A DNA stretch of 24,000 nucleotides, taken from Bacilli bacterium (GTDB taxonomy: Bacteria; Bacillota_I; Bacilli_A; RFN20; CAG-826). This document shows, one piece after another, positions 2,526 to 23,775 of this stretch. A program made the position numbers and the translations under genes. Below the pieces are notes generated by a model. It was given only the letters and a program-made list of their open reading frames with translations, had not been told where the DNA came from and made no database searches. Position 1 is the first letter of the stretch. Each line of letters starts with the position of its first letter. Where the stretch lies: positions 182,177 through 206,176 of the forward strand of contig JAGAYY010000025.1 in NCBI GenBank assembly GCA_017940265.1. The letters run 5' to 3'.

Positions 2526-2538
2526 AACATATATAAGG
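2526..2538 (-). promoter_or_regulatory. CCTTAT-box (candidate promoter) abutting start codon
   Basis: Minus-sense CCTTATATATGTT, immediately followed by the ATG of 1881..2525. Confidence 0.5.
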
Positions 2539-2634
2539 CAGTTGAGAGCTTCTGACTGTGAATATCCACCAAGTTAGTTTTATCTTTTGTAGATTAGAAT
2601 ATCGGAGATTTTTATAAGGACAAAAGAAAATTTA

Positions 2635-2812
2635 TCTTGGGTCGCCCACCTAGCCCCTCCTCACTTCGTTCGTCGTTGCCCGACCCAAGACTCTGTTCAG
2701 GAGACCTGAACAAGAGGATATCATTATCTCTCCTGAGGTTTTAACCGAAGGGAGAGACATAATCAGGGGACCTCTAAGGGACCCTGATATGATTATTAAA
2801 AGTAGTGAGGGC
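2635..2812. other. GC-enriched multi-hairpin element (candidate ncRNA or origin-associated structure)
   Basis: Perfect 10-bp helix tcttgggtcg (2635-2644) / cgacccaaga (2681-2690) around a C-rich 36-nt loop. Further hairpins at 2691-2716, 2724-2762 and 2762-2788. Possible long-range pairing cctcact (2659-2665) / agtgagg (2804-2810). My hand count is about 50% G+C over 2641-2820, in an otherwise AT-rich window. No ORF. Confidence 0.45.
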
Positions 2813-2878
2813 TTGTCCCGAACGTTAATTATATAATAAAAGGATAGTATTTTAACATTTTTTTTCTTCCGACATTTC

Positions 2879-2911
2879 TATATAGAGTCTACAAGATTTT
2901 GGTCTAAAATT
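2879..2911 (+). repeat. 33-bp direct repeat copy 1 (iteron or tandem promoter)
   Basis: tatatagAgtctacaagattttggtctaaaatt; 32/33 identical to 2954-2986. Confidence 0.8.
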
Positions 2912-2953
2912 GTTAAACTTTAGACTTCATCATTATTTTTGTCATTTTTATTT

Positions 2954-2986
2954 TATATAGGGTCTACAAGATTTTGGTCTAAAATT
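2954..2986 (+). repeat. 33-bp direct repeat copy 2 (iteron or tandem promoter)
   Basis: tatatagGgtctacaagattttggtctaaaatt, 75 bp downstream of copy 1. It begins with a TATATAG core resembling the CCTTATATAT box. Confidence 0.8.
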
Positions 2987-3036
2987 AATGAAATGCTCTT
3001 CTGAAGGTCTGAATACCTTAAGGATGAGATAAGAAG

Positions 3037-3062
3037 AAACTCTCAACTGCAAGAGTTTTTAG
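3037..3062 (+). terminator. weak terminator-like or attenuator hairpin in the helicase 5' leader
   Basis: aaactct (3037-3043) / agagttt (3052-3058), loop caactgca, then a T-run. The stem is AU-rich, so confidence is low. Confidence 0.3.
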
Positions 3063-3088
3063 TTAATATAAAAATGAAATAAATAATT

Positions 3089-5137
3089 ATGAATAAGCAA
3101 AGCTTGATTGTACCAAAAAGAATAAGGTACATTAGTGATTGGAAAGGATATAGTTTGAGAGATTATACCTTTCCTCATATTTTAAACAAAACCCTCACAG
3201 GATGTGGTTTCACTGAATATTGTATCAGAAATGATCAAAATCTAGTATTGGTATCTCCCCGTAGATTTCTCTTAGAGAATAAGGAAGATCAACATCAAGG
3301 GGAGATTTTCTATGCTAGAAATGATACAGAATCTCAGATCAATTTTGAGGTGGACGTATTATCAACATCTAAAGACAATTCCACCAAGAAAACTCCGACT
3401 GATCCTTCTATAATAGCTAAGGGAATTTTAGAGTTTAAGCATAGGGTTTTTGAATATTGTACTAGTTGTGCAATTAGGAAAAAACCATTCAAGATATTAG
3501 TTACCTATGATTCTTTCCGTCATGTCAAAGAAGTATTAGCTGAGATGGGAATCTTAATGGAAACTCAGATTGTAGTAGACGAATTCCAATCGATTTTCAT
3601 TGATTCACGCTTCAAATCTCATACAGAACTTGAACTTGTTAATCAACTTTTAGGCCTTAATAGAGTGTGTTTTGTCTCAGCCACTCCAATGTTAGATGAA
3701 TACTTAGATCGACTAGATGAATTCAAAAATCTACCGTACCTGGAATTAGATTGGAAGACAGAAGAGCCAGGGAGAGTAAAATCTCCTAGACTTGAAGTTA
3801 AATTTACTGTTAGAAGTCTTAATGAGGAAATTACTCACGTTATTCAATCTTACCTTAAGGGAAATTATGATATGAGGATGTTTCAAAATGAAGACGGTAC
3901 TTATCATGAGGTTGTTTCTAATCAAGGCGTATTCTTCATGAATTCAGTGAAAGGAATTTGTCAGGCTATTCGGAGTAATTTATTGACTATAGATCAATGT
4001 AATATTCTATGTGCTAAGACTGACGAAAATGAAAAGAAAATTAGAGCAGCATTTAATGAAGTTCTAAAACGAAAAGAACTTCCTAAGTTAGATAAGGTAA
4101 CGTATCCAAGAGTTATAGGCAGAATACCTAAGAAAGGTGAGCCCCATAAGATGTTTACTTTTTGTACAAGAACAGTTTATCTTGGAGCTGACTTTTATTC
4201 AACCTGTGCTAGGACTTTCATCTTCAGTGATAGTAATATAGACTGTTTAAGTGTTGATATTTCGATGGACCTAGAACAAATTCTAGGTCGTCAGAGATTA
4301 GATGAAAATCCATGGAAAGATTCTGCTTCACTATTTGTTAAAACTACGTCATTAAAAAATCGATTAACTAAGGAAGATTTTGATAGACAACTTGATAAAA
4401 AGATATTAAATAGTCAAGATCTCTTAGATATATACAGAGATGCTGACCCTACCAAGAGGCATACGTTAGCTAAAGCATATCAGGATAGAGCAAAGATGAT
4501 GAGTTATAAAGATGATTATGTTGCCGTTAATCATCATGCTGGATCCGATCTTCTGCCTGTATTCAATAACCTAATGTTAGTCTCCGAACAACGTGCTTTT
4601 GATGTTCAGCAAATCGATTATAAAAATAGATTTACTGTTTTTAACACTCTACAGGAAAATGAGATGATAGGAGTTAGAGATGAAGTTTATGAATTTGCTG
4701 AAAGGTTTAATCAGATCAAAGATACTACCACTAAACTTAGACTTCTTGTTGAATTTAGTGAAGCAGAAGGAATTAAGTTTGGAGATATGTTAAGGCTGTT
4801 TGAGCTTATTCCTCCCAAGTATAAAGACTACTACGTTATTATTGGTCCATCTAGAATTAGAACCCTATCTTACAAAGAATCTGAAATCAAACAAGAATGG
4901 AATAGGGTTTCCAGAAATAGTAAATCTATCGAAGGTGTTATTTCTAAGGTAAAGGAAACATTCAAGGTAGGTGAACGATATACTAAAGCTTGGATCAAGG
5001 AGAAGCTAAGAGAAATCTACACGGAGGAAGATTATCAGAAATCCCCTAAGGCAAATGATCTATCTGAATGGTTTGATATTAAATCAATAACAACAAAAGA
5101 TAGACAAAATGGATTTGAAATTATTAAAGAAAAATGA
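3089..5137 (+). CDS. superfamily 2 helicase (DExH-like) with atypical Walker A
   Basis: Motif I-like LTGCGFTE, motif II VVDEFQS, motif III FVSATP, motif V-like VYLGADF, motif VI QILGRQR. Confidence 0.8.
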   Translation: MNKQSLIVPKRIRYISDWKGYSLRDYTFPHILNKTLTGCGFTEYCIRNDQNLVLVSPRRFLLENKEDQHQGEIFYARNDTESQINFEVDVLSTSKDNSTKKTPTDPSIIAKGILEFKHRVFEYCTSCAIRKKPFKILVTYDSFRHVKEVLAEMGILMETQIVVDEFQSIFIDSRFKSHTELELVNQLLGLNRVCFVSATPMLDEYLDRLDEFKNLPYLELDWKTEEPGRVKSPRLEVKFTVRSLNEEITHVIQSYLKGNYDMRMFQNEDGTYHEVVSNQGVFFMNSVKGICQAIRSNLLTIDQCNILCAKTDENEKKIRAAFNEVLKRKELPKLDKVTYPRVIGRIPKKGEPHKMFTFCTRTVYLGADFYSTCARTFIFSDSNIDCLSVDISMDLEQILGRQRLDENPWKDSASLFVKTTSLKNRLTKEDFDRQLDKKILNSQDLLDIYRDADPTKRHTLAKAYQDRAKMMSYKDDYVAVNHHAGSDLLPVFNNLMLVSEQRAFDVQQIDYKNRFTVFNTLQENEMIGVRDEVYEFAERFNQIKDTTTKLRLLVEFSEAEGIKFGDMLRLFELIPPKYKDYYVIIGPSRIRTLSYKESEIKQEWNRVSRNSKSIEGVISKVKETFKVGERYTKAWIKEKLREIYTEEDYQKSPKANDLSEWFDIKSITTKDRQNGFEIIKEK

Positions 5138-5161
5138 ACTCAGAGTAAAGTGAGGAAAGAG

Positions 5162-5194
5162 GATAGGAACAATTAAGTTTCCTATCTTTCTTTT
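5162..5194 (+). terminator. rho-independent terminator
   Basis: gataggaa (5162-5169) / ttcctatc (5179-5186), then tttctttt. Confidence 0.6.
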
Positions 5195-5206
5195 CCTTAT
5201 TTATAT
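5195..5206 (+). promoter_or_regulatory. CCTTAT-box abutting start codon
   Basis: CCTTATTTATAT, directly followed by ATG 5207. Confidence 0.45.
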
Positions 5207-6241
5207 ATGAGAAAAGATAAACCAGATAGAAAAGAGCATAAGAATTCTGTTTGGTGTAGGGGAAGTGGACGTAGTAAGATGCTATTTGAATCGGAGTCTA
5301 AGGCAAATAATTTTATAAAGTTTAATGCAAAAACTATTCTAGAAGAGAGTGGTATGGCTCCGACTCGTGCTTATTATTGTCAATTTTGTTGTGGTTGGCA
5401 TGTTACTAAGCGTCCGGAGGAGTCCAAGGAATACTGTGATGCTAGAGATTTAGAAAAGCTACAGAGAGTATTAGGACTAGGACCTTCACCCAAACCAGAC
5501 ATAAAGAAAACCCTAACTGAACTACTTACTTCTTTGGAGATTGATAGTGTTAGGGTTCTTTTAAAAGATGAAGAAAGAAACCCAGACCATGATATTCAGG
5601 AGACCTTAAGGTGGCTGAACGGTGAAGAACATGATGTCTGGAGATATAAGGCTATTCAGGACGCACTTTCAAATCAAGTAGTATGGATTAAAACTTCGGG
5701 TTTATTGAAAGAAGCTGAGGATGGATTGGCAGAGATGAATGTACAAAAGACTGAGTCCTCTTTAAAAGAAGCTCGGAGATTATTTGGTCAATTCCGAGGT
5801 AGTGGATCTGTTTCTTTAGTTAAGGAATTTTCTGAGAGAGCTAAAGAGATCGATCTTGAATTAGCAGAGTTAGTCCCTATTAATGATATATGGGAATTAG
5901 TCGATGGGAAGTCTATATTAGAATATCAGGAACTACAACAAACGATCAACAATATTCTTAAGTTTTTAGCTTCTTGGGATGAACCCTCCGAAGAACCTGG
6001 CAAAGCTATAAAGAATTGTGGGAAAAGATTAATAGGTAGAGACGGGAACTCTGATATTTTAGACCGCTTCAAGTCTCTGATCCTTAAGGAAAACAAACTC
6101 CCTAAGGCTGCTCTCCTTCTTATTGCATGGAAGTGTAGTCGTGGAAAAGAACTAAGAATAGAGTATAAACGTAGAGCTTGGGTAGTGATAGATAAAGATC
6201 AAAGCCCAGATGGAATTTATGGAAGGTTACATTTAGTATGA
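5207..6241 (+). CDS. hypothetical protein with N-terminal Cys-rich zinc-ribbon-like motif
   Basis: N-terminus has C17 ... YYCQFCCGWHVTKRP (CxxCCxWH). The rest is predicted helical and acidic. Confidence 0.75.
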   Translation: MRKDKPDRKEHKNSVWCRGSGRSKMLFESESKANNFIKFNAKTILEESGMAPTRAYYCQFCCGWHVTKRPEESKEYCDARDLEKLQRVLGLGPSPKPDIKKTLTELLTSLEIDSVRVLLKDEERNPDHDIQETLRWLNGEEHDVWRYKAIQDALSNQVVWIKTSGLLKEAEDGLAEMNVQKTESSLKEARRLFGQFRGSGSVSLVKEFSERAKEIDLELAELVPINDIWELVDGKSILEYQELQQTINNILKFLASWDEPSEEPGKAIKNCGKRLIGRDGNSDILDRFKSLILKENKLPKAALLLIAWKCSRGKELRIEYKRRAWVVIDKDQSPDGIYGRLHLV

Positions 6242-6870: not shown

Positions 6871-6880
6871 CCTTATATGT
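6871..6880 (+). promoter_or_regulatory. CCTTAT-box
   Basis: CCTTATATGT, 14 nt upstream of ATG 6895, with an A-rich leader. Confidence 0.4.
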
Positions 6881-6894
6881 AAAAAGAAAAATTT

Positions 6895-7860
6895 ATGTGT
6901 TTATTTATTGACAAGAAAGATTGGTTTGTAGCTAAGAAAGATATTACATGCTACAAAGTCCTGGAAGGTAATGAGAAGGATGGATATCGTACTCCGTGTC
7001 AGGGTTGGCCAGTAAAACCAGGAACTACTCTTATCCCTGATGAATCAAGCCCCGTCATTGAGGAGAATGGATTTAAGTATGAATTAGGGGCAGGAGTTAT
7101 TCACGCTTATACTGGAATAGTCGAGGTTTCTGGCTCTCATATCTTCAAGGCTATAATCCCTGAAGGTACTAAGTTCTGGATACAATCTGACTTAACCGAA
7201 GTAGCAGCCGAGAAATTAATCCTGACCACTGAAGAATTAACCTCGGGAAAATGCCTGCCTGATTTAAAAGACCACCTAACACCGAAACTTAAGGTCTATA
7301 CTTCGGCAGGAGAAATAACCGAGGTAGGAAAAATCAGTGGTAGCGATATTCTTGGGGTTGTAACTTCTGGTGGTAAGATTGTTGGGGTGGAAGTTAGTGA
7401 GAGAATGTATTTTTCTGAATCTAACCCCAAGTATAGTGGGAAAACCTATGATAAACCATTCGAAGATATGGATGGCCTAGGAAACTGTGCCGAGATCAAG
7501 GAGAAAAGTACTGGAAAATTACTGGCTATTGAATGGGCTAAGTCGAAAGGCGGATATCTTCCATCATCCGGAGAACTTAAGGAAGCATTTATGGAGTTAT
7601 TTGAAATTAACTCAGTTTTAGTGATGGTCGGGAAGAAACCTATTATGTCAGATCGTTATTTCTGGACTTCTTCGATGAAGAGTTCTGAATCTATATGGAT
7701 CTGTAGCAGTAGTGGCGGTTACTATTGGGACAACTGGTGCTACTGCAGTTGGAACACCGCGGCTGTGTTCTTCCTTTCTTATCCAGCTCTCTTGAAAAAT
7801 AAGATGCAGGAGAAAGGAGCGAAATCATTGAATGATGGAGCGAAAAAGTTGACCGCCTGA
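6895..7860 (+). CDS. hypothetical protein with DUF1566-like C-terminal region
   Basis: GYLPSSGELKEAFMELF...DRYFWTSS...GGYYWDNW resembles the DUF1566/Lcl-C pattern (W.LPt..EL..l....YWSSt). Confidence 0.7.
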   Translation: MCLFIDKKDWFVAKKDITCYKVLEGNEKDGYRTPCQGWPVKPGTTLIPDESSPVIEENGFKYELGAGVIHAYTGIVEVSGSHIFKAIIPEGTKFWIQSDLTEVAAEKLILTTEELTSGKCLPDLKDHLTPKLKVYTSAGEITEVGKISGSDILGVVTSGGKIVGVEVSERMYFSESNPKYSGKTYDKPFEDMDGLGNCAEIKEKSTGKLLAIEWAKSKGGYLPSSGELKEAFMELFEINSVLVMVGKKPIMSDRYFWTSSMKSSESIWICSSSGGYYWDNWCYCSWNTAAVFFLSYPALLKNKMQEKGAKSLNDGAKKLTA

Positions 7861-7873
7861 GAAAGGCTGAAAA

Positions 7874-7886
7874 CCTTATATATGTA
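7874..7886 (+). promoter_or_regulatory. CCTTAT-box with no ORF behind it
   Basis: CCTTATATATGTA. No usable start codon follows (ATG-TAA). It precedes the ORF-free structured region. Confidence 0.4.
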
Positions 7887-8515
7887 ATAGAAAATTACCT
7901 AAAGCTGGGTTCTGTGTAAAACGGAATTCCAGCTTTTGATTCTGTTCTTATAAAAGAACTATGGAGTAGCTTATGCGAAGGTGCTGTGAGCGAGAGTTAC
8001 TCCGAGAGTATGGAGATAAGAACCATACCATCGTCTGAGCGATGTAAAAGTGTCACAGGATCAGAAACAATAGACTGAGGTGTTGTTAACTCGGTATCGT
8101 GAGATTTTCTGATTATTGGCTTAGAGCGGGAAAAATAAATGGTTTAACACAAAATTCATAGAACTTAATCTAGGGTAATATTAATAGCCCAGATAATATA
8201 AGTTTATGAATAATATAAAACAAAAAATCCTAGTATCGAAGAGGTACTAGACCTGGTAGGGTGATGGTTTCTTGGAAGACAGGAAATCTACAGTGCCCTA
8301 ATCAACACACGTAACCTAGGAACCTGGGTGAACTAATGGTGATCAAATCTCTGTATGGATTTGACTATCAGAGGAGTGTGAATTAACTTTGATTGGGTAT
8401 ACAGACCTGATCCCATGCTTAGAGGAATATTTCTGAAGAGGTTATATTCAATAGGTGAGGAGTTAATTAAGAAAGACCTGCGGAGAGAAGCCACAGGCGC
8501 AATCATTTTAAACTT
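7887..8515 (+). ncRNA. candidate long structured RNA or long 5' leader (class unknown)
   Basis: About 630 nt without a credible ORF. My hand count is about 44% G+C over 7961-8120. Helices: 7963-7968/7998-8003, 8008-8013/8023-8028, 8029-8033/8040-8044, 8060-8067/8106-8113 (8 bp), 8230-8237/8243-8250. Several helices contain T:G pairs that only work as U-G in plus sense. Confidence 0.35.
7903..7938 (+). terminator. terminator-like hairpin after 6895..7860
   Basis: agctgg (7903-7908) / ccagct (7929-7934), 20-nt loop, then tttg. The large loop lowers confidence. Confidence 0.45.
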
Positions 8516-8539
8516 TTGAGACAAAGTATATATAAATAT

Positions 8540-9763: not shown

Positions 9764-9813
9764 TCGTTTAGTAATTTTAATCTAGACCTGATGAGCTCGT
9801 AAGAGCGAAACAG
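9761..9813 (+). ncRNA. hammerhead self-cleaving ribozyme, type III topology
   Basis: UUGUC|GUUUAG-uaauuuuaau-CUAGAC-CUGAUGA-GCUC-GUAA-GAGC-GAA-ACAG. All core nucleotides are present: C3-A9 = 9788-9794, G12A13A14 = 9807-9809, A15.1 9810 pairing U16.1 9764, and C17 9765. Stem I is 6 bp and stem II is 4 bp with a GNRA loop. Stem III is 4 bp and open. Confidence 0.8.
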
Positions 9814-9904
9814 CTATAGTATTAACTGCAGCTAAAGTCTGCGACCTATATTATAGAATATCAATAAATTTCAAGATATTATTAACAATTAAAAAGAACA
9901 AATT

Positions 9905-10195
9905 ATGGATAAAGAGAAAGTAAATTTAAAACAATGGCTTAAAAAGAATTGGCCAAGTGTTCTAGTGAGTGGGGTTAGTGTAATGGCTGTAGTTTATGAA
10001 TATTACCTCATCACAGAACTCAAGCGAATGAATGATGCCCTAGTTGCGGAGAACCGTGATTTAGAAAGAAAAAGTCTTGATCTAGCGGGTCAAGTCAGGG
10101 CAAGTGAACGAGAGAATCGACAGTTAACCCGAGAAATTGGAAACTTAAATTATCAACTCGGGAAAGTCGTTTCTAAAGAACATTTAAAACTTTAA
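9905..10195 (+). CDS. single-pass membrane protein with coiled coil (FtsB/DivIC-like or i-spanin-like architecture)
   Basis: TM segment WPSVLVSGVSVMAVVYEYYLI, then a heptad-like region LKRMNDALVAENRDLERKSLDL... Confidence 0.65.
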   Translation: MDKEKVNLKQWLKKNWPSVLVSGVSVMAVVYEYYLITELKRMNDALVAENRDLERKSLDLAGQVRASERENRQLTREIGNLNYQLGKVVSKEHLKL

Positions 10196-10549: not shown

Positions 10550-10562
10550 TAATAAACTTAAA

Positions 10563-11999
10563 ATGAACAAGCAAATGGACAAAAGAAAAGAAGCAAAGTT
10601 TGATCCTGAGAGACAAATCGATTTTGTAAAATTAATCGGTGCACTTGATTGGACAAATGAAATTAATCCTGTTTCCCTGGTTAAAGCAGTGAACAAAGTA
10701 GCTAATCTTAAGGGAATAAAGAAGTATGAAACCAATGAGAAGTCCTTCGGGAGTTTGATTAAGAGTTTCGAGATGAGGGTATCAAGATTCGTCAATACCC
10801 GATTCCAAGGCAAAGATCGATTCTATCGCCTGAAAGAAGGATGTACGGTAGAACAGATGTTAGCTTTTGCAAAAACAGGAGAAGTCATTAAACCAAAGGA
10901 AATTATTGGGGAAAAGAAGTATTATATCCCTGAGGTTAAATCTGAGGAAATGGCAACAAAACGGGAACGTCGTGTTTTCCCGGATAATGAAGCTCTGATG
11001 AAAACTATTATAATTCTTAAGTACTTGAAAAAAGGAAATGGAGAATCGGTTGGATCAGAGGTGCGAAGCTTTGTAGAGAGTAACGCAGGCTGGAAACGTC
11101 AAAGATCTGTGTGTGGCAAACTTATGTCAGCATATCAAGAAGCTACCAAGATCTTGACTGAGTACTTAGATCTCCCAGAGAAGACGCTAGTAGTTAATCA
11201 TAACAAAACTAAGTTCAATGGAGATCTCTCTAAAATAGATGGGTATATAGATAGTCTTATTTCGCTTATTGATGGTGAAGAAGAAATGTCGAAAATACTC
11301 GCCTGGATGACTTTAATAGATGGTAAAGAGAGCAAAAAAGAGGAGGAAGAAGAAAACGTTGTGGTCATTCCTACAAGAAAAAAGACTACAGAAGTTGTTT
11401 ATACTTCTCCCGATACTAATGCGCCTAAGCAGTCAATTACATTGCCCACAGTAGAGCCCTTCGATGGTATTAAATCAAAGTGGAATAAGTCGTTGATCGC
11501 TGAAGTAATCCGTCGAGAAGGACGTGGGACTAGAATTGAGTATATCCCATTGTCCGGAACTATCAAGAAGAATAGATTTGTTGACATTCAAGTAACAGAT
11601 CTTAAGAGCTTGATTCGGGAAATCCAAAGTCAATTCCCGAATATCTTCTATGGTATTGATTCCCAAGGTTTCAGTATCAGCTCAGAAAAGATGCTCACTG
11701 AGTTCTGGTTGGCATATGATCAGAAGAAAATCACTGAGCAAGTGTTTATGAGACTTAAGATGAGCCTCAAAGATTTAACCGAGAATTATCCGGACCTTAA
11801 GTTCGAGATTGCTTCGGAGATTTCAGAGGAAGATAACATCTATAGTATCACAGTGGACAGAACTAATAAGGCCGAGCGGGCACTTACTAAGTTAGTTTGG
11901 AGTATGAGAAAAGGAGAAACAATCCTAGAATCACCCAATAACTGGACATTTAGAAGAGTAAATCTTATAATGAGTAAGCTTGGACTGACTGAACTCTAA
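10563..11999 (+). CDS. hypothetical protein
   Basis: The ORF track gives 10524. The in-frame ATG at 10563 (MNKQMDKRKE) avoids overlap with the upstream gene and has an A-rich leader. Confidence 0.75.
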   Translation: MNKQMDKRKEAKFDPERQIDFVKLIGALDWTNEINPVSLVKAVNKVANLKGIKKYETNEKSFGSLIKSFEMRVSRFVNTRFQGKDRFYRLKEGCTVEQMLAFAKTGEVIKPKEIIGEKKYYIPEVKSEEMATKRERRVFPDNEALMKTIIILKYLKKGNGESVGSEVRSFVESNAGWKRQRSVCGKLMSAYQEATKILTEYLDLPEKTLVVNHNKTKFNGDLSKIDGYIDSLISLIDGEEEMSKILAWMTLIDGKESKKEEEEENVVVIPTRKKTTEVVYTSPDTNAPKQSITLPTVEPFDGIKSKWNKSLIAEVIRREGRGTRIEYIPLSGTIKKNRFVDIQVTDLKSLIREIQSQFPNIFYGIDSQGFSISSEKMLTEFWLAYDQKKITEQVFMRLKMSLKDLTENYPDLKFEIASEISEEDNIYSITVDRTNKAERALTKLVWSMRKGETILESPNNWTFRRVNLIMSKLGLTEL

Positions 12000-12009: not shown

Positions 12010-12020
12010 CCTTATATGAG
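12010..12020 (+). promoter_or_regulatory. CCTTAT-box-like sequence (doubtful; lies between a stop codon and a terminator)
   Basis: CCTTATATGAG. Confidence 0.2.
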
Positions 12021-12464: not shown

Positions 12465-12735
12465 GTTGTTTGTTTCGGTTTTTGTTTTTAATTCAGCTCT
12501 CCTCTCCCGAAAGAAAGGAGCTGCCATACGAACCTACTACTAGATTACTTCTCTATCCGAGTCCCGAAGGATTCTGATAGATTTTCTTCTAGCCTCCTTC
12601 GCCCCACTTAGCTTCCCAGCTTTAGTGGTACCTAGACTACTACACCACGTTGAGGTGTGGGGATATGCAGTAGATTGAGAGGGAATGATATTAATGTGGA
12701 GTACATGAGTCAAGTTACTTTTCGGAATTATCATA
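12465..12735 (-). ncRNA. candidate structured 5' leader or ncRNA (class unknown)
   Basis: In minus sense there is a 12-bp hairpin with a UUCG loop (plus 12494-12523) and a C(UUCG)G hairpin (plus about 12555-12575). CCCCAC/GUGGGG helix at plus 12601-12606/12655-12660. G-U pairs work only in minus sense. Confidence 0.35.
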
Positions 12736-12904
12736 TTTACATATATTCTATTAATCGTCTAATATATTCTTTACAATAAATCAGGATACTAATATTAGTT
12801 TATTTATTCTATCATTATTATATTAGTTCCCTATCCGTTCTCCATGTAACACTCGAAAGTAATTATTAATCCTCTACTCCAACATTGTCGAGCCTTCTCT
12901 CTCA

Positions 12905-13660
12905 TTAATAAGGATTTCCAGGGTCCTCTATTACAACCGGATAACCTGAAACGTTATAAAATTCAGTCTCACCAATTACTCTATGTTCTGGTTTATGGAT
13001 ATGGCCGAAAATATGTATCCTAGGTTTTACCCTTCTGACGGTTTCTGATAATTCTAATGATCCTGGTTCTTCAAATCCATAATCTCCTAGACTTTCCTTA
13101 ATACATCGGAGGCCATAGAATCTAGGAGCATCATGAGTAACTAGGATATCAAGTCCGGAAGGTATCATCTTTAGGTCTTCTCTCCTTCCTCTCGTCCACT
13201 GAAAAGCCCATCCAGAACCACAGATAGTCCAAGGATTTCCCCAGATCCTACGTCCTTCATATTCTATCTCATAGTCGACCAGTACCTCGATTCCAGTTCC
13301 CAACCGATTTCCTCTTTCTCTCTCAATCCAAAAGTCATGATTACCGGGAACAATCACGAACTTGTATGCGGCCGGAAAGAAATTTGGCAGCTCACTCAAG
13401 AATTCCCTCATTTCTTTCTTTTGTTCAGAGTAGATATCGCTGCCACATATATCACCGGCCAAGATAACTAGTTCGGCATTCCATTCCCGGTCCCAATTTT
13501 TCCAGGTTCCGTGTATATCAGAAACAGCAGCTATAGTAAGAGGACCAATATAAGGAGTGCTATCAGGTAAGGTCCTCCCCAGAATAGTATTACCCTCAGT
13601 TGCCATAGAATCAAGTAACATAATAACAATACTAAGATTAAGTTTTTAAACTTCTTTTTC
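12905..13660 (-). CDS. calcineurin-like metallophosphoesterase, probably with N-terminal signal peptide or anchor
   Basis: Motifs SDIHG, AGDICG, PGNHD, VTHDAP, GHIH. The in-frame ATG at 13660 (no intervening stop by my translation) adds MKKKFKNLILVLL upstream of the track's TTG start at 13621. The CCTTAT box abuts that ATG. Confidence 0.8.
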
Positions 13661-13673
13661 ATAACAATAATAA
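13661..13673 (-). promoter_or_regulatory. CCTTAT-box abutting start codon
   Basis: Minus-sense CCTTATTATTGTT followed by ATG 13660. It overlaps the 3' half of the upstream terminator stem. Confidence 0.45.
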
Positions 13674-13697
13674 GGAAGAGACCATAACAAGTCCCTT
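13661..13697 (-). terminator. terminator-like hairpin after the vWA gene
   Basis: Minus sense: GGAAGGGAC (13697-13689) / GUCUCUUCC (13680-13672) with one G-U pair, then UUAUUAUUGUU. Confidence 0.5.
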
Positions 13698-13706
13698 CCC
13701 TAGAAT

Positions 13707-15746
13707 CTAAGATATGGTAGTCTTTTTATCTGCTACTACTGCTTTCTTGATGATATTACCTAGTAGTTTCGGTAATTCATCTACTCCATGTCTTAAGTCT
13801 ATCACATTTTTAAACATGTCTTCAGCTCCACATACATTGTCAATAGTTACTTGAATGACAGAAAAACCATCATTCTCAAGTTTCTTAACATTTTCACGAG
13901 TATCATGTCTAGCAGCCAAACCTCTATAGTCGCAGGCACTAGGTTCACCATCACTAATAACAAACATAGTAACTGGTGATGAGGTAAATTTTCTTACTCT
14001 TTTACCTACTTCATACAGTGCGACACCATCTCTATTTTCATATAATCTTCTTCCACACATTCCGAGAGCATAAGGATCAGAATGTTTTTTTCCTTCCTTA
14101 TAAATTCGAATATCGGTAGAACCAGTATGAGTAATATCGGCAGTATGACCATAAATATAGAGATCTACTCCTGGCAAACTCCCTAAGGCTTCATTCAGGA
14201 GTATAGCGGCTTCTCTTGCTTTGGTCATCTTAGTAGAATAAGAGTATCGATATTCTTTACTATATTCTACCCAATCCGTTCCCATACTACCAGATTCATC
14301 TATTACAACGCAGACAGTACTCTTATTTGTTCTAACCTGTCCTTGTCGAATATAAACCTGTGGTACTCCTTGATATGCTTCGGCCAGTTTTGCTGTATCT
14401 AGGATTCCAGATCTACATCCATAAATATTAAAATCATAGTTTCGATCTGTATTCTTGATAAGTTTCTTAATGGCAGGAACAGATTTCTGAATTTGATTAG
14501 CAACTCGTCTATAATTCTCTGCATTTCCTTTGATATTTTCGAAATAGGTGGATTTCTTTTCCCCACGTTCGGCCATGCCAGTAATTAGTTTAGATAATAT
14601 AGAGCTATCTTTGATCTTACTAGAAATTTCAACTCCAGATATTGCACTTCCAGAATCAGAATCAGATCCATAATTTACTTTAACAAATCCCATTTCAAAT
14701 GCTTTTCCATATTTAGATAGCATTTTAACAACGTGACCAAGGCTAAGTTTCTTATCAGAACCTTTAGTTTTTAGTTCAAGATCCGGGAAAGTAGATATTA
14801 TTTCTTTATAAATTCCTAATCCTGCAATACAAGCTTCTTTAGTTGATTGTGGTAGAGGATTTAAGAATTTCTGAATAGCCTTATACTGTTCAGAATATTT
14901 CTCTAAGGTATCTTCGTCTAGATCTTCCGGATATCTGATCAACCTGAAGAGATTATTCATGAAAAGCTTAAATTGTACTTCTTTCTCGAAGGCAGAGTAA
15001 ATATTATTATTGCTATACTTAATAAAGTTTTTATATTGATAACTTTTAGCAATATCTATAAACTCTGTATATCCCGGACGTTCTTGAAGTAGTAAATTTT
15101 CAATTCTTTCATCTTCAATAAGATTAATTAATGAGATAATGAACAAAATACAATCTTCAAGTTTAGTAGTCTTACCATCAATAGTTATGCTTCTGGTACA
15201 AAGTCTATTAGAAAAATCCGTTAAGACTTTATACTCAGTGAACTTCAGATGAGAAGCTTCATGTACTCCTAAGCCACAACAGATATTAATTTTCTCTGAA
15301 TCACTATATCCAGATTCATCAAGTATTTTTGTTGGAATGAATACACGTCTAGATCCATCTTTAAGTCCTCCTTCTATTTCAGAACCATCACAAGATAATT
15401 GAATTTTAACATTGAAAGGAAAATCCAAAATAACAATCATATCTCTAGTAGATCTATAGACCTTACTAAGAAGTTCCTGTGCTTTATCAATATCGGTTCC
15501 GCTTGATCTTCCATACCAACTACTACTGCTTGATACAGTCTCTGACAGTCTAGAAGTTGAATATCCCAAAGAAGATTTATATCTAGATTTATAGGCATCT
15601 TTCCAAGAATAATCTTCTTTTTTAGATGAACCCCACCAATCCCATCCAGATGAAGAAGAGTCAGAGTCATAATAATCATCGTCATCATCTCTGCTACTTC
15701 TCCAATAACCAGAATAATATCCTTTTGACCACCAAGGTTTTGACAT
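13707..15746 (-). CDS. CobT-like vWA-domain protein with central HExxH motif and low-complexity N-terminus
   Basis: C-terminal vWA domain: MIDAS VVIDESGSMG, IYGHTAD, ENRDGVALYEVGKRV, FVISDGEPS (CobT-like spacing). HEASH at nt 15249-15263 with IEDERIE at 15099-15116. The N-terminal 85 aa are rich in S/D/W/Y. Confidence 0.85.
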   Translation of the reverse strand: MSKPWWSKGYYSGYWRSSRDDDDDYYDSDSSSSGWDWWGSSKKEDYSWKDAYKSRYKSSLGYSTSRLSETVSSSSSWYGRSSGTDIDKAQELLSKVYRSTRDMIVILDFPFNVKIQLSCDGSEIEGGLKDGSRRVFIPTKILDESGYSDSEKINICCGLGVHEASHLKFTEYKVLTDFSNRLCTRSITIDGKTTKLEDCILFIISLINLIEDERIENLLLQERPGYTEFIDIAKSYQYKNFIKYSNNNIYSAFEKEVQFKLFMNNLFRLIRYPEDLDEDTLEKYSEQYKAIQKFLNPLPQSTKEACIAGLGIYKEIISTFPDLELKTKGSDKKLSLGHVVKMLSKYGKAFEMGFVKVNYGSDSDSGSAISGVEISSKIKDSSILSKLITGMAERGEKKSTYFENIKGNAENYRRVANQIQKSVPAIKKLIKNTDRNYDFNIYGCRSGILDTAKLAEAYQGVPQVYIRQGQVRTNKSTVCVVIDESGSMGTDWVEYSKEYRYSYSTKMTKAREAAILLNEALGSLPGVDLYIYGHTADITHTGSTDIRIYKEGKKHSDPYALGMCGRRLYENRDGVALYEVGKRVRKFTSSPVTMFVISDGEPSACDYRGLAARHDTRENVKKLENDGFSVIQVTIDNVCGAEDMFKNVIDLRHGVDELPKLLGNIIKKAVVADKKTTIS

Positions 15747-15771
15747 ATGTAGTTTTTATTTAATTAAAAGT

Positions 15772-15793
15772 TTAGCCCCGGTTAAAGGGCTAA
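15772..15793 (-). promoter_or_regulatory. intercistronic hairpin between the AAA+ and vWA genes
   Basis: ttagccc (15772-15778) / gggctaa (15787-15793). In minus sense it is followed by ACUUUUAAUU. Confidence 0.4.
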
Positions 15794-15798
15794 TATTA

Positions 15799-16950
15799 TT
15801 AATATGATGAGATAGTCTTATAGATTGTACTTCTCTCACCGTCTGTAGTAGTACCTTCATATAATGGAAGGTAGATCATTTCCATAGCTTTACCCAAGTC
15901 CCATCCATCAACCACTAAGTTAGCTACCATAAGGGTTTCTCGGATTGATAGTGTACTAGAGATTTCCTGCTTGTTGTACAAGCTTCTAATATTATTAGCA
16001 ACCTTAACAATCATTTCAGAATCTTTCTCCTCCAGGCCGGTTCTCTTGCATAAAACAGCTTTTTCTTCAGTGCTAGGTATACATCCTAATTCTAAGGGGA
16101 AGAATCTATTAACAAGTGCACGGTCCATTTGATTAGTTCCACTATATTCAGAACCTACATTAGCGGTAGCAATAAATGTAACTTCGGGATGAATCTTAAT
16201 CTCACGAATATCTTTACCACCTGCAACCTCAATACTTAAGGTTCGACGATCATCAAGACACGGGAACAGCACATTATTAGACGAAAGTGCTGCTCGGTTA
16301 AGTTCATCTAGGAGAATTACACAAGGTTCCTGAATAACTTGAGTGAATTTGGCATAATCAAAAATAGATTTGCCACCTTCAAGTCTATGAACACCTAAAA
16401 GACTGCTGATTGGGTCAATAATAGATCCCATATCAAAAACATGAAGAGGGATATCCAATCTTGTACATACTTCTTTAACACAACTAGTCTTACCAGAACC
16501 AGTCGGGCCCACAATTAAAGTATTAACATGCTTCTTAATATTCCTCACCAGAAGATTCCAGTCATTTGAAGACATGTAGAATCCATCTTTCTTAGAGGAT
16601 GGGCAGACTAGTTTCGTATCTGACATAATCTTTGACAGAATAGTAGATTCTTTCATTGGATCTACGAAGGTTGTCTTGAATGTTTTATCATATTCAGCAA
16701 TCTCCGCTCTCATTCTGCCATCAAGTCGTCTGAAATTCTTAGTGGTATAGTATTTTTTACCAAACGAAAGATTCAAGGCATCACTTACAAAAATTGTGCC
16801 AATTGGAAATTTGCTTCGAATCTCTGTAGGACAACTAACCATAAGATTTTCATCTACTGGAGTTCCGTCAGATAATTTTTGACCAGGTAATGCATTAACT
16901 CTGATCTTAGATTTCTTTTTATCTTCTACAGTTTTAAAGTAATAATACAT
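15799..16950 (-). CDS. MoxR/CobS-like AAA+ ATPase (AAA_5 type)
   Basis: Walker A VGPTGSGKT, Walker B VILLDELNRA, sensor-1 FIATAN, DRALVNRF. There is an extra N-terminal domain of about 140 aa. Confidence 0.85.
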   Translation of the reverse strand: MYYYFKTVEDKKKSKIRVNALPGQKLSDGTPVDENLMVSCPTEIRSKFPIGTIFVSDALNLSFGKKYYTTKNFRRLDGRMRAEIAEYDKTFKTTFVDPMKESTILSKIMSDTKLVCPSSKKDGFYMSSNDWNLLVRNIKKHVNTLIVGPTGSGKTSCVKEVCTRLDIPLHVFDMGSIIDPISSLLGVHRLEGGKSIFDYAKFTQVIQEPCVILLDELNRAALSSNNVLFPCLDDRRTLSIEVAGGKDIREIKIHPEVTFIATANVGSEYSGTNQMDRALVNRFFPLELGCIPSTEEKAVLCKRTGLEEKDSEMIVKVANNIRSLYNKQEISSTLSIRETLMVANLVVDGWDLGKAMEMIYLPLYEGTTTDGERSTIYKTISSY

Positions 16951-16986: not shown

Positions 16987-17010
16987 CTCACATCAATAAG
17001 GAAATCAAAG

Positions 17011-17020
17011 CCTTATAAGA
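17011..17020 (+). promoter_or_regulatory. CCTTAT-box abutting a GTG start
   Basis: CCTTATAAGA followed by GTG 17021. Same geometry as 23766-23775 / GTG 23776. Confidence 0.45.
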
Positions 17021-17287
17021 GTGAGAAAATTAAATTTAAAAAAATTATCTAAGGTAATAAGAAAAATACGAGAGTTACCAAAAGATACTAATACACAATT
17101 CAAGGTTAGGGGTTATACGAGAATGAGAATTCAAGTATCAACATCGTCGGCAGATGATACTATTGCTCTTGCTTTTCTTAGTAATGATCCTAGATTGAAA
17201 GATTCAATGTTTTACCTTATTGGCGGTAAACCAGAAAAAGGATCTAATCCTTTTGACTTAGATCTCTTAACTCAGATTATTATATGA
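17021..17287 (+). CDS. hypothetical protein (GTG start)
   Basis: ORF track. Basic N-terminus MRKLNLKKL. Confidence 0.6.
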   Translation: MRKLNLKKLSKVIRKIRELPKDTNTQFKVRGYTRMRIQVSTSSADDTIALAFLSNDPRLKDSMFYLIGGKPEKGSNPFDLDLLTQIII

Positions 17288-18885: not shown

Positions 18886-18898
18886 TACATATATAAGG
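18886..18898 (-). promoter_or_regulatory. CCTTAT-box abutting start codon
   Basis: Minus-sense CCTTATATATGTA followed by ATG 18885. Confidence 0.5.
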
Positions 18899-18915: not shown

Positions 18916-18928
18916 CCTTATAAATAGT
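18916..18928 (+). promoter_or_regulatory. CCTTAT-box abutting start codon
   Basis: CCTTATAAATAGT followed by ATG 18929. Divergent partner of 18886-18898. Confidence 0.5.
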
Positions 18929-19251: not shown

Positions 19252-19264
19252 CCTTATTAATGAA
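19252..19264 (+). promoter_or_regulatory. CCTTAT-box variant
   Basis: CCTTATTAATGAA, 17 nt upstream of ATG 19282. Confidence 0.35.
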
Positions 19265-20790: not shown

Positions 20791-21226
20791 TCCAATCCCA
20801 ATCAACTACCATGCAAACTTCTCCGAAACGATTCTTCACCGGCCGAGTTTTAATGCCGAGGTTATGATCATCGATATAGTAGTCGGCATATATCTTACGG
20901 CCGGGATCCTGCGTTTCGAGTTCCCACCATGGATTTTCTCCTATCGCATCAAACTCTAAACCCCTCTCCTTACAAAATTCAATGACTGGCGTAAGAAGAT
21001 CAACGGTCCCTGGTTTTCCGGCGCGTCCAGTTTCTTTGAGATATTCGCGAAGTTCTGGACAATAGATAGGATATTCGGTAGTTCTTTGTGTTATAAGAAT
21101 TAATCGATCACCTCTTTCGCGTATCCCTTTCAAAGTAGATATCGCGCCATCTATCTCTGGACCGATATAAGGCCATTCATCTACGCATATGGTATTATCA
21201 AAATCAATCCCGTAAGTCTTTCCCAT
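20774..21226 (-). CDS. HAD-superfamily phosphatase (DxDxT)
   Basis: The ATG at 21226 gives MGKTYGIDFDNTICVDEWPYIGP...LILITQR...YADYYIDDHNLG. These are HAD motifs I-IV. The track's longer start adds an implausible extension. Confidence 0.75.
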   Translation of the reverse strand: MGKTYGIDFDNTICVDEWPYIGPEIDGAISTLKGIRERGDRLILITQRTTEYPIYCPELREYLKETGRAGKPGTVDLLTPVIEFCKERGLEFDAIGENPWWELETQDPGRKIYADYYIDDHNLGIKTRPVKNRFGEVCMVVDWDWIATLL

Positions 21227-21328
21227 ATATAATACAATATTTAATACCTTCCCAAACAATAACACATGGATAACTTTCAGGCCTTTCTTCACCCACAAGA
21301 CCTAATCCCTCTTTTACTCCGAGGTAAT

Positions 21329-21865
21329 CTATAATTGTGTGGAGTGTTCTTTTATCCATCCCAGAATTTTTGCTATAATAATAAATTCAGCCTCATCCTT
21401 CTCAACCTCGGCATAGTCTATCTTCCATCTATCTAGAAAATCTTTAAATCTTTTATCAACTTGAATAGCCTCTTCTTCAGTTTGTTCTCTACCCTTAACG
21501 TTATAAGAAGTGCTACGTCTTAGATAAAAATTCATATTATTGAAAGCTTTGAATTGATCCACTACGAAGTCAGCAAATTTCTGATTTTCTGTTTTATCAT
21601 AGACTGCTGGATTAAGAAGACTAGAGTCACAGATAATAACCTGAACTTTTCCTACTAATCGATTTATTCTGTGAAGTTGTTTTCCGAATACATAAATAGA
21701 ATCATCCATAACCTTCCATGATTCTTCCCATACTTTTTCTTTAACATATTCTGGGGCCATCTCAACTTCTACTCCTAGAACCTTAAGGCGAGCAAAGAGC
21801 TGTGCCATCAATGTAGATTTACCAACTCCAGGTCCTGCCATTAGATTAACTATTAACGTATCCAT
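21329..21865 (-). CDS. P-loop NTPase, nucleoside/nucleotide-kinase-like (AAA_28/NadR-like)
   Basis: Walker A MAGPGVGKSTL, then APEYVKE (compare the NadR EYGRE motif), and IICDSS as a Walker B-like strand. Confidence 0.6.
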   Translation of the reverse strand: MDTLIVNLMAGPGVGKSTLMAQLFARLKVLGVEVEMAPEYVKEKVWEESWKVMDDSIYVFGKQLHRINRLVGKVQVIICDSSLLNPAVYDKTENQKFADFVVDQFKAFNNMNFYLRRSTSYNVKGREQTEEEAIQVDKRFKDFLDRWKIDYAEVEKDEAEFIIIAKILGWIKEHSTQL

Positions 21866-22362
21866 TCTTCTAATTTGTTAACTAAATTATTTGTATCTTC
21901 CAAACACCTGAGATTATCTTCTATATTAGACATCACTTTATGTTCACTTCTATTCAGATAATCCTCATATTTATCTAAGTTAATAATCTCAAGTTGTTTT
22001 TTTATCCTCGGTAGAGCTTTCTTAGCATCTTCCTCTGTTAAGAATTTATTGAAGTGATAGTTATATAGGTTTAAGGTATCTGAAGAATCGTGCCTAACCT
22101 GAAAACTATGATTTCGGCACCTATAATCTTCGTTATTCGTATCTATCTCTTCGAAAGAACACCTAAAATATTTTCCTTTGCTATACTCAAGCCACTTAAC
22201 CGTATATTCCTTAATCTGACCAGTCGGAAAATAGAATTCGATGGAGCTTCTACCGTCTTGATGAATATAAAAAGGATTTTTAGGTCTGTAAACATCACAC
22301 TCTACTACCCAAACCTTCTGACCATTTTCCCAAGGATGCTCTAAGATTTCATCTTTTGTCAT
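21853..22362 (-). CDS. hypothetical protein (distant member of the tandem paralogue family)
   Basis: GQKVWVVECDV... and FLTEEDAKKALPRIKKQLE resemble the two upstream small proteins. Confidence 0.7.
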   Translation of the reverse strand: MTKDEILEHPWENGQKVWVVECDVYRPKNPFYIHQDGRSSIEFYFPTGQIKEYTVKWLEYSKGKYFRCSFEEIDTNNEDYRCRNHSFQVRHDSSDTLNLYNYHFNKFLTEEDAKKALPRIKKQLEIINLDKYEDYLNRSEHKVMSNIEDNLRCLEDTNNLVNKLEEWIR

Positions 22363-22649
22363 AGGATTAATCGTTTCTTAAATTTCTGATACATAGACTC
22401 TGCTCTATCCATAGCTCGATAAATAGTAGAGTTCCAAACCTCGATAGCCTCTTCTTTAGTAGAGTAAAGATTTTTAGAATCCCCTGGAGATATATACCTA
22501 GTTCCGAGTTTTTCGAATTTGGCCATATATCCACCACCAGAACCTACTTCTTCGATAACTACCTCTTGTGGTTCTACTGCTCTTCTTAGTCGATCTCCTC
22601 TGTAAGTAAGTTCGGCAAGAGCATACCACATGATATCTCCTTCTTTCAT
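22359..22649 (-). CDS. hypothetical protein (tandem paralogue A)
   Basis: ATGA overlaps on both sides. Shares G..(M/V)W...E(L/F)..G and LYSTKEEAI...IYRAMDRAESMYQK with 22646..22975. Confidence 0.7.
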   Translation of the reverse strand: MKEGDIMWYALAELTYRGDRLRRAVEPQEVVIEEVGSGGGYMAKFEKLGTRYISPGDSKNLYSTKEEAIEVWNSTIYRAMDRAESMYQKFKKRLIL

Positions 22650-22975
22650 ATCATCTTTGATTTAACATACCTAACTGCCTTCTGATACTCTGAATCAAGT
22701 TTATCTAATGTGCGATAAACCATAGATCTATAATGTTGGATTGCATCCTCCTCGGTGTAGTGTAATTCGGCAGGTACACAACAACCATCAGAAGTATAGA
22801 TATAGTTAGAGGTCGGAGTTGGAGTAGTTTTAACCTCAACAATCTTTGGTTTAACTATTCTCATTGCCTTTTGACCTGTTCTTGAGAATTCTATACATGA
22901 TCTCCAAACTTCCTGTCCTTTCTGAAGTTGTCTAGCCTCTTCGTATGTCATCCTTCCAGCATATGTTTTGACCAA
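22646..22975 (-). CDS. hypothetical protein (tandem paralogue B)
   Basis: LHYTEEDAIQHYRSMVYRTLDKLDSEYQK aligns with paralogue A. Confidence 0.7.
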   Translation of the reverse strand: MVKTYAGRMTYEEARQLQKGQEVWRSCIEFSRTGQKAMRIVKPKIVEVKTTPTPTSNYIYTSDGCCVPAELHYTEEDAIQHYRSMVYRTLDKLDSEYQKAVRYVKSKMI

Positions 22976-23592
22976 GTTCTGAAAGATAGTCCATAGGTTT
23001 TCTTCTTGGCTTCGGCGATTATTGTTTCGAGAGGTATCAGAAAACTACCCTCCCTTTTAGCCACCTCAGAATCAAAACCAATATCCATACGTAGATCAAT
23101 CTTCGAGGAATTATTAAGTGAATCTATATTTCCATGACAATGACCATGTATGTTGAGAGAACCATGATATTTATGATTCCATTCTAAGATAGGATAGTGT
23201 GATAGAGTAAGTTGTATTTCCTCATCTCCCATTTTTAGGTTAATATCTAGAAGATCAGCAGTCAACTTAAAATAGCGCTGTAAGATACCTCCTGAGTAAT
23301 ACAAACGTTCCTTATCATGGTTACCAATGATTTTATACGTTTGTTTAGGTAGGAGGTTACATAGCGCTTCCATTTCTGACTGCTCTGTTTTCCAAAATAA
23401 GTCTCCTAAGTCGAATAGGATATCTTCCGGCTCGAGTGTATCCTTAAGAGTTTGTAGGATATATTCATTCATTTCCGTGACATCCTTAAAAGGTCGGCCA
23501 TTATTAAATTTAAGTATATTTTCATGACCATAGTGAAGGTCTGACATAAACCAAACCCTCTCTGGATTTACAAGTTTATTCGGGAATTTCAT
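22948..23592 (-). CDS. metallophosphoesterase (COG4186-like phosphoesterase)
   Basis: VWFMSDLHYGH, LGDLF, IIGNHD, LSHYP, HGHCHG. Confidence 0.8.
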   Translation of the reverse strand: MKFPNKLVNPERVWFMSDLHYGHENILKFNNGRPFKDVTEMNEYILQTLKDTLEPEDILFDLGDLFWKTEQSEMEALCNLLPKQTYKIIGNHDKERLYYSGGILQRYFKLTADLLDINLKMGDEEIQLTLSHYPILEWNHKYHGSLNIHGHCHGNIDSLNNSSKIDLRMDIGFDSEVAKREGSFLIPLETIIAEAKKKTYGLSFRTWSKHMLEG

Positions 23593-23743
23593 CGTTTCCT
23601 TTATGTTTTTGTTTGCGTGAATAATCTTTCTTTGATTTATGCTCGATAGAAGGCCTTAATGATAAAAGCCTTCCGTATTGTTTGAGCTCATTTTCTCGTC
23701 TAACCTTTTCTGCAAATTTAGGTTTCTTTTTCTTCTTGCTCAT
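23576..23743 (-). CDS. small highly basic protein (55 aa, not in ORF track)
   Basis: My translation: MSKKKKKPKFAEKVRRENELKQYGRLLSLRPSIEHKSKKDYSRKQKHKGNDEIPE. The CCTTAT box abuts the ATG. It overlaps the start of 22948..23592 by 17 nt. Confidence 0.5.
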   Translation of the reverse strand: MSKKKKKPKFAEKVRRENELKQYGRLLSLRPSIEHKSKKDYSRKQKHKGNDEIPE

Positions 23744-23756
23744 AACATAAATAAGG
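23744..23756 (-). promoter_or_regulatory. CCTTAT-box abutting start codon
   Basis: Minus-sense CCTTATTTATGTT followed by ATG 23743. Confidence 0.5.
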
Positions 23757-23765
23757 GAGTCACAG

Positions 23766-23775
23766 CCTTATATAT
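23766..23775 (+). promoter_or_regulatory. CCTTAT-box abutting a GTG start
   Basis: CCTTATATAT followed by GTG 23776. Divergent partner of 23744-23756. Confidence 0.45.

Follow-up and report, generated by a model that had tools for sequence, protein, structure and literature searches.

We analysed a 24,000-nt stretch of DNA (the window) from contig JAGAYY010000025.1 of assembly GCA_017940265.1, in which a short box, CCTTAT-N3-T-G (consensus CCTTATWWWTG), recurs close to the start codons that open transcription units. The window has a GC content of 36% and gave no match in a megablast search against GenBank phages, in Rfam at gathering thresholds or in a tRNA scan. Exact-protein look-ups placed it on one 268,236-nt ruminant-gut contig, and together with 8.1 kb of left flank and 9.6 kb of right flank it provided 41.7 kb for analysis. 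A first-pass annotation of this DNA had described the box as CCTTAT(A/T)n abutting start codons and had proposed that it is a promoter giving leaderless mRNAs. Every box in its table was present in the sequence next to the start codon concerned, and the full conserved word proved to be longer than the one it had described. The box stands at the head of protein operons, of tRNA genes and of short non-coding units, is often placed right after a hairpin with a T-run (terminator), and always lies on the same strand as the downstream gene. We conclude that it is very probably the core of a promoter.

We compared the frequency of the box between coding and intergenic DNA. In the window, CCTTATWWW was found in 15 copies against 5.4 expected, a count reached in 0 of 100 shuffles, and intergenic DNA, which makes up only 15% of the window, held 14 of the 34 copies of CCTTAT. 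Over the 41.7 kb, CCTTATNNNTG occurred in 15 intergenic and 3 intragenic copies (3.2 versus 0.08 per kb, approximately 40-fold; binomial p = 3e-12). CCTTAT was also the top enriched 6-mer 5' of transcription-unit heads (13 of 34 versus 1.3 expected) and ranked first among the permutations of the word (n = 60) for a long open reading frame (ORF) starting within 20 nt (8 of 34), and a repeat finder, run independently, recovered CATAACATATATAAGGC three times (family D8). A box was present within 100 nt of 19 of the 30 transcription-unit heads in the 41.7 kb. At divergent gene pairs the proportion was 11 of 12 heads, with start codons merely 24–70 nt apart, and nothing else that was conserved in these gaps could serve as a promoter.

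The consensus was taken from 77 non-redundant boxes, none of which had been picked by the scan pattern. The results showed T at position 10 in 81% and G at position 11 in 79% of the boxes (A in a further 16%), and, upstream of the box, T at -5 in 74% and A at -3 in 79%, with no conservation near -33. The commonest variant is CCTTATATATG, which ends in TATG. The distance from CCTTAT to the start codon was bimodal, being either 4–7 nt (mode 7) or at least 18 nt (mostly 24–35 nt) with A-rich leaders. Approximately 12 of the 19 boxes of the contig abut a start codon, that is, 4–7 nt from CCTTAT, and all three cases with a 4-nt gap have GTG codons starting exactly at G11.

We then assessed whether the abutting start codons are authentic. 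In a Metallophos gene of the left flank (L178), which starts 5 nt after CCTTAT, residue 6 is aligned by Pfam to profile position 3; in a Metallophos gene of a relative (L083), 7 nt after the box, residue 5 is aligned to profile position 2; and in a Thg1 gene, also 7 nt after the box, residue 17 is aligned to profile position 9. Pairs of homologs with 38–45% identity align from residue 1, and the box stays 7 nt upstream in both members, although the hairpins preceding it are not alike. Since the exact pattern served to find these pairs, their identity inside the box is by construction. The gene calls of the source assemblies use the same start codons as the box-abutting ones. With Pfam domains beginning at residue 5–6, the abutting start codons, 5–7 nt after CCTTAT, are genuine. 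If the box is the promoter, the geometry places the RNA start site no later than box position 12–14, the latest admissible position being 12 for the left-flank Metallophos gene, 14 for the 7-nt class and 15 for tRNA-Arg. The conserved T10-G11 step would be the most economical candidate. A role of the box as a Shine-Dalgarno or anti-Shine-Dalgarno signal was considered and rejected, and words resembling the Shine-Dalgarno sequence were not enriched 5' of 66 genes.

The genes behind the box bear on whether it acts on transcription or translation. In related phage contigs, the box was found 5' of tRNA-Leu, tRNA-Gln, tRNA-Met and tRNA-Glu genes, and degenerate copies lie 8–10 nt before tRNA-Arg genes, indicating a transcription signal rather than a translation signal. 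Boxes without an ORF, namely the one at 7874 and two to the left of the window, are followed by 60–100 nt and then by a terminator-like hairpin, and distant relatives (L164 and L196) have the same layout of box, hairpin with T-run, A-rich leader and ATG. Copies between a stop codon and a terminator had seemed odd for a promoter to the first-pass annotation. The best explanation for them is that they head short transcription units or act as attenuators close to a promoter, as the copy at 7874 would; the copy at 12010 is a poor match to the motif and may be due to chance. Other candidate signals were rejected: inverted ATAAGG/CCTTAT pairs, considered as a dimeric operator, have variable spacers and most boxes are single; sigma-70-type promoters occurred at chance level (71 sites versus 72.8 expected); and canonical TAHHTTTG showed no association with gene starts here.

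Two regions behind ORF-less boxes were recorded in addition. Behind the 7874 box and its hairpin, approximately 650 nt (7885-8539) contain no ORF of at least 50 codons and have no Rfam match; an attenuator close to the promoter and a non-coding RNA are both conceivable here. In the left flank, L178 approximately 16416-16537 (window coordinates -4011 to -3890, 121 to 4 nt before a gene given near -3797) consists of a box, approximately 95 nt, a GC-rich hairpin with T6 and a second box, the latter having the same upstream context, GAAAGGCTGAAAACCTTATATATGTA, as the 7874 box. This segment is a candidate small RNA gene between two protein genes.

The copies in the window differ in sequence, spacing and quality. 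On the minus strand, the box CCTTATATATG at 2528..2538 lies 7 nt before ATG 2525 of a 214-aa gene and heads a divergent unit, and CCTTATAAAAA at 2609..2619, 88 nt 5' of the same ATG, has no T-G at positions 10–11 and is a doubtful copy. On the plus strand, CCTTATTTATA at 5195..5205 lies 6 nt before ATG 5207 (344-aa gene), directly 3' of the hairpin and T-run that follow the gene at 3089-5137; the variant box CCTTATATGTA at 6871..6881 lies 18 nt before ATG 6895 with an A-rich leader; and the box CCTTATATATG at 7874..7884, with no ORF behind it, precedes a hairpin with a T-run (7887-7945, -20.8 kcal/mol), making it the head of a candidate short RNA or attenuated leader. The weak plus-strand copy CCTTATATGAG at 12010..12020 lies between the stop codon at 11999 and a bidirectional terminator region and is without T10. 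The copies at 6871 and 12010, which begin with CCTTATATG, and the copy at 2619, which has no TG, are the poorer fits to the motif.

Two places in the middle of the window needed correction. The minus-strand box CCTTATTATTG at 13665..13675 lies 7 nt before ATG 13662 and 48 nt before ATG 13621 of a Metallophos gene, and its CCTTA contributes to the 3' arm of the hairpin that terminates the upstream gene (stem 13671-13702). The start given as 13660 in the first-pass annotation is actually ATG 13662, which opens a very hydrophobic 43-codon ORF (13531-13662, minus strand; MKKKFKNLILVLLLCYLILW...) right behind the box; this ORF overlaps the start of the Metallophos gene (12905-13621) and is out of frame with it. 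The minus side of the divergent pair at 16950/17021, previously taken to be degenerate, carries a full box, CCTTATTGATG, at 16991..17001, 45 nt before ATG 16950 of an AAA ATPase gene, with a hairpin in the leader. On its plus side, position 11 of the box CCTTATAAGAG at 17011..17021 is also the first base of a GTG start codon (17021). Farther to the right, the minus-strand box CCTTATATATG at 18888..18898, 7 nt before ATG 18885 of a 62-aa gene, stands back to back with the plus-strand box CCTTATAAATA at 18916..18926, 7 nt before ATG 18929 of a 105-aa gene, and the two starts are 43 nt apart. The leadered class is represented by CCTTATTAATG at 19252..19262 (plus strand), 24 nt before ATG 19282 with an A-rich leader. 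At the right end, CCTTATTTATG at 23746..23756 (minus strand) lies 7 nt before ATG 23743 of a 55-aa gene that has no other Met, and CCTTATATATG at 23766..23776 (plus strand) has the GTG start at 23776 at box position 11, opening a 117-aa gene that runs past the window end.

Several further features of the neighbourhood were noted. Two 36-nt direct repeats (2876-2911 and 2951-2986), 94% identical and 75 nt apart, sit in the 563-nt gap between the divergent genes 1881-2525 (minus) and 3089-5137 (plus), of which the plus-side gene has no box; the repeats are possibly regulatory or replication-related. Between 8540 and 9708, and also at 9892-9910 and 10560-10583, small ORFs of 45–75 aa, several of them hydrophobic, have near-identical leaders (AAACAAATAAATGGAYAAATTATG) and resemble a cluster of small paralogous genes that share a conserved translation-initiation region. 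A stretch of 377 nt between minus-strand genes (12528-12904) has no called gene, and the only ORF in it, of 64 codons (12540-12734), is doubtful as coding sequence. Three AAA-type ATPase genes and two vWA-type partners lie within 20 kb, at 13707-16950 (minus) and, in the right flank, at 25906-31315 (plus; window numbering extended into the flank; L184 2278-7687): the window has an AAA_5/CbbQ_C ATPase beside a 679-aa partner, and the right flank has AAA, AAA_5 and VWA_CoxE genes. TerD, HSP20, AAA_28 and AAA_33 genes are close to this cluster, and almost all other proteins had no Pfam or PHROG match.

The window's AAA ATPase led to the phage family. Its relatives, at 64–74% identity, lie on IMG/VR contigs of up to approximately 400 kb with 28–29% GC. 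A scan of IMG/VR with the exact 16-mer CCTTATWTATGTTATG returned mostly low-GC contigs of 230–400 kb from this ATPase-relative group. In the family matches, over 15 distinct genes, 60–260 codons long, start at this ATG, and the matches usually stand right after a hairpin with a T-run or face an inverted box. No ORF starts at the ATG of the 16-mer in contigs that are unrelated and richer in GC. The box was enriched 10- to 20-fold in family loci versus approximately 1-fold in other phage groups with a homologous ATPase. The same scan over 185,579 bacterial and archaeal genomes gave scattered chance matches only, and a 284-kb Bacteroidetes metagenome-assembled contig with three boxes was rejected as having no relation to the family; the scan yielded no host assignment. 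The window and its IMG/VR relatives have few genes in common, too few for a promoter comparison across orthologous gaps. A Bacteroidota host is likely, judging by the sequence, because there is no Shine-Dalgarno enrichment and because the sole cultured relative of one window protein is a Bacteroides phage protein; a literature search for start sites of Bacteroides phages gave nothing useful. Many family contigs of 330–380 kb (among L001-L027 of IMG/VR) end approximately 4 kb past the ATPase locus. This common end suggests a shared assembly break near the part of the genome that is homologous to the window, for instance at a terminal repeat, in a hypervariable region or where the genome ends.

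We also searched the family for an RNA polymerase. When 98 non-redundant ORFs of the family were scanned against Pfam, one relative (L104) proved to have an RNA_pol_Rpb2_6 protein, homologs of which lie on contigs of 270–430 kb and adjoin Rpb1_2 genes (L190 and L389). A search of IMG/VR with this beta-like gene as a single protein returned only itself, and an alignment-based search showed that IMG/VR contigs with an ATPase relative and boxes also carry the beta-like gene. A regular-expression search for the DFDGD catalytic motif gave no match in the family fragments. The cultured relatives of the beta-like gene are the RNA polymerase beta subunits of Staphylococcus jumbo phages, AR9/PBS1, phiR1-37 and RSL2, and its relatives of solved structure (PDB 7s00 and 7ogp) include the AR9 and phiKZ non-virion polymerases. 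These homologies indicate that family contigs of 230–400 kb carry genes for an AR9/phiKZ-type split multisubunit RNA polymerase, and, judging from these relatives, the window's own phage would carry one as well. The enzyme reading the box is most likely a phage-encoded multisubunit polymerase. In many relatives, the beta-like gene is interrupted (L190 approximately 9790-10000, L192 approximately 9880-10000, L212 approximately 7770-7900) by inserts containing AACGACTA...GATATAGTCTA, which resemble a group I intron core and are adjoined by NUMOD3/DUF723 endonuclease-like ORFs; one family protein has an intein (L162).

Based on these findings, we propose, with a probability of roughly 0.6, that the box is the compact core promoter of most transcription units, that it starts RNA at T10-G11, and that it is read by a phage polymerase. 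The core promoter would consist of CCTTAT-N3-T-G with a weaker T at -5 and A at -3, approximately 17 bp in total, and would need no -35-type element. RNA would start inside the box or at its 3' edge, most likely at the pyrimidine-purine step T10-G11. With start codons 4–7 nt after CCTTAT, the resulting mRNAs would be near-leaderless, with leaders of 0–3 nt, and the three GTG starts would fall exactly at G11; a second class of mRNA would have A-rich leaders of approximately 20–30 nt. The same box would drive tRNA genes and short non-coding units, and its reader would most likely be the phage's own split multisubunit RNA polymerase, related to those of phiKZ and AR9. The first-pass proposal of a promoter giving leaderless mRNAs stands in part: on indirect evidence, a promoter-type signal and a large share of leaderless or near-leaderless messages are retained, and the motif relatives that it proposed are not.

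A broader claim, which we put forward tentatively and would give somewhat less than an even chance, is that these widespread human and ruminant gut phages (230–400 kb) transcribe much of their genome with their own polymerase from a promoter of 11–17 bp, starting at most three bases from the start codon, so that many of their mRNAs are leaderless. If so, the family, which is uncultivated, would gain its first promoter consensus, a jumbo-phage polymerase would for the first time be linked to systematic leaderless expression, and the promoter repertoire of such polymerases would widen beyond phiKZ and AR9. Leaderless messages would then form a large share of the phage mRNAs in hosts whose own mRNAs are rarely leaderless and in which Shine-Dalgarno pairing is not used. 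With the start sites placed as above, leaderless translation would be far above the 3.7–5.5% of the presumed hosts, which bears on competition for ribosomes. A box combined with a terminator hairpin would also yield attenuated leaders or small RNAs. In a family with almost no gene of known function, the box offers a simple, testable rule for locating transcription units and correct start codons, and an orthogonal promoter of 17 bp could serve expression tools in Bacteroidota.

Several observations weigh against the proposed phage-polymerase promoter. No polymerase gene was found for the 268-kb contig of the window itself (41.7 kb read), and the window has only few core genes in common with the contigs that bear the polymerase. 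The relatives' polymerase operon has no box within 8 kb upstream, which implies at least one further promoter class, and 11 of the 30 unit heads are without a box. A few relatives have a start codon just 2 nt after CCTTAT, too close for an RNA start fixed at G11. AR9 leaders are 26–491 nt long and no leaderless phiKZ transcript has been found, and both the promoter role and the start position are read from geometry. Finally, the box has TA....TG in the register of the host -7 element and CC at the place of an extended -10 element, in agreement with recognition by a sigma factor. The strongest rival is accordingly that it is an extended -7 promoter of the host RNA polymerase, recognised by the Bacteroidota primary sigma or by a phage sigma-like factor.

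In the host promoters, the -7 element TAnnTTTG (TAHHTTTG) lies at -12 to -5, followed by 4–5 nt to the start site, and T-12, A-11, T-8, T-7, T-6 and G-5 are nearly invariant (PMC6847099). Under a host-sigma explanation, TA at box positions 4–5 would be T-12 A-11, TG at positions 10–11 would be T-6 G-5, and CC would be an extended -10 contact replacing -33. This register is identical to that of TAnnTTTG and puts the CC at -15/-14. Extended -10 elements of sigma-70 promoters sit at about that place. The AT-rich patch formed by T at -5 and A at -3 is reminiscent of an AT-rich motif at -18 in the promoters of F. johnsoniae, which likewise have no clear -33; the leadered class would obtain leaders of 15–26 nt, near the 23–24 nt typical of Bacteroidota; the phage resembles these hosts in having no Shine-Dalgarno sequences and in its A-rich leaders; and the box is kept across phages of widely differing GC and sequence, as a host-imposed signal would be. 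The conservation is nevertheless different: TA is fixed, T-6 is present in 81% and G-5 in 79%, but the equivalents of T-8 and T-7 are T in only 43% and 19% of the boxes, and CCT is added upstream. The geometry also misfits the abutting starts. With a 4–5 nt spacing, the first transcribed base of the 7-nt class would be the G of the ATG or a later one, and that of the 4–6-nt classes would fall well inside the ORF, although these start codons are genuine. A degenerate box also lies just 3 nt before the 5' end of a tRNA-Arg. A phage sigma-like factor could change the start geometry. That canonical TAHHTTTG is not linked to gene starts here, that other phage groups with a homologous ATPase show no enrichment of the box, and that the family has its own polymerase all speak against the host enzyme. 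The likeness to the Bacteroidota element seen by the first-pass annotation thus holds for the TA....TG register and fails for T-8/T-7 and for the start-site geometry, and we consider host recognition unlikely, though a serious competitor.

The box could instead act in RNA, either as a translational operator over the start codon, in the manner of T4 RegA, or as an endoribonuclease cleavage site. Many copies touch the start codon, some lie between a stop codon and a terminator and would thus be at the 3' end of the upstream transcript, and TGTTATG may resemble the T4 RegA consensus. Such a role is difficult to reconcile with the boxes 5' of tRNA genes and non-coding units, and with the leadered class, in which the box is 24–35 nt from the start codon and outside the initiation region. 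The divergent pairs, with starts 24–43 nt apart, leave no other conserved promoter to transcribe the box, and the T10-G11 step and the upstream T and A positions resemble initiation signals; we therefore regard action at the RNA level as improbable. Least credible of all, and very unlikely on the statistics, is that the box has no function of its own and simply reflects low GC content, terminator tails or the common descent of duplicated gaps. The 16-mer does arise by chance in bacterial genomes, several boxes follow T-runs, and one CCTTA lies within the terminator stem 13671-13702. Yet the shuffled sequences and the intergenic excess speak against this origin, as do the fixed orientation and spacing at more than 15 unrelated genes; the flanks of the homolog pairs are 38–45% identical where the box is exact (these pairs having been found with the exact pattern), and the same 16-mer opens no ORF in unrelated contigs.

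Compared with known systems, the proposed phage-polymerase promoter resembles most closely those of jumbo phages that encode RNA polymerases, each of which has a conserved, bioinformatically detectable motif of approximately 10 nt near -10 upstream of its early operons (review, PMC7598289). Like these early promoters, the box is a short conserved motif 5' of many small operons, detectable by sequence alone, predicted to lie near -10 and without a -35 element, as in the AR9 early promoter AAATATATATTAT-N6-G(+1) (PMC5312081), in a phage family with a related split multisubunit polymerase. Unlike them, it starts with CC and is not purely AT-rich, and it is common to a broad family, whereas the early motifs vary from phage to phage. 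The late promoters of AR9, AACA-N6-T-A/G(+1), and of phiKZ, T(-3)ATG(+1), provide a second comparison (PMC7598289; PMC5312081). The likeness here is a specific block of 4–6 nt approximately 10 nt upstream, a short spacer and a pyrimidine-purine step, with the start placed by geometry in our case, and CCTTATATATG ends in TATG as does the phiKZ late element. The upstream block is a different one, far more conserved than in phiKZ late promoters, and AR9 late recognition needs deoxyuridine in the template strand (PMC7598289).

The T4 late promoter, to which the first-pass annotation had also likened the box, resembles it as a minimal promoter. It is served by gp55, gp33 and the sliding clamp, is confined to the -10 region and has no -35 element. 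Its sequence TATAAATA is found exactly in one copy only (18916), the conserved part here being CCTTAT...TG, and this relationship was not upheld. The box-abutting genes also recall leaderless mRNAs, such as lambda cI from PRM and those of numerous actinobacterial and archaeal genes, in that the predicted 5' end coincides with the start codon or is a few nt away, leaving no leader for ribosome binding. mRNAs with at most 5 nt of leader are commonly called leaderless, and if the box is the promoter, the 12 boxes that stand 4–7 nt from a start codon would give leaders of no more than a few nt. In classical leaderless genes, the -10 hexamer stands 6–7 nt before the ATG, and the TA-containing hexamer is 2 nt closer to it here; the start codon also shifts between 4 and 7 nt relative to the box, unlike the classical cases, so that many predicted transcripts would have 1–3 extra 5' nt. 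The unusual part is the systematic abutment of promoter and start codon, seen at approximately 12 of the 19 boxes, because AR9 and phiKZ transcripts are not leaderless and few Bacteroidota mRNAs are.

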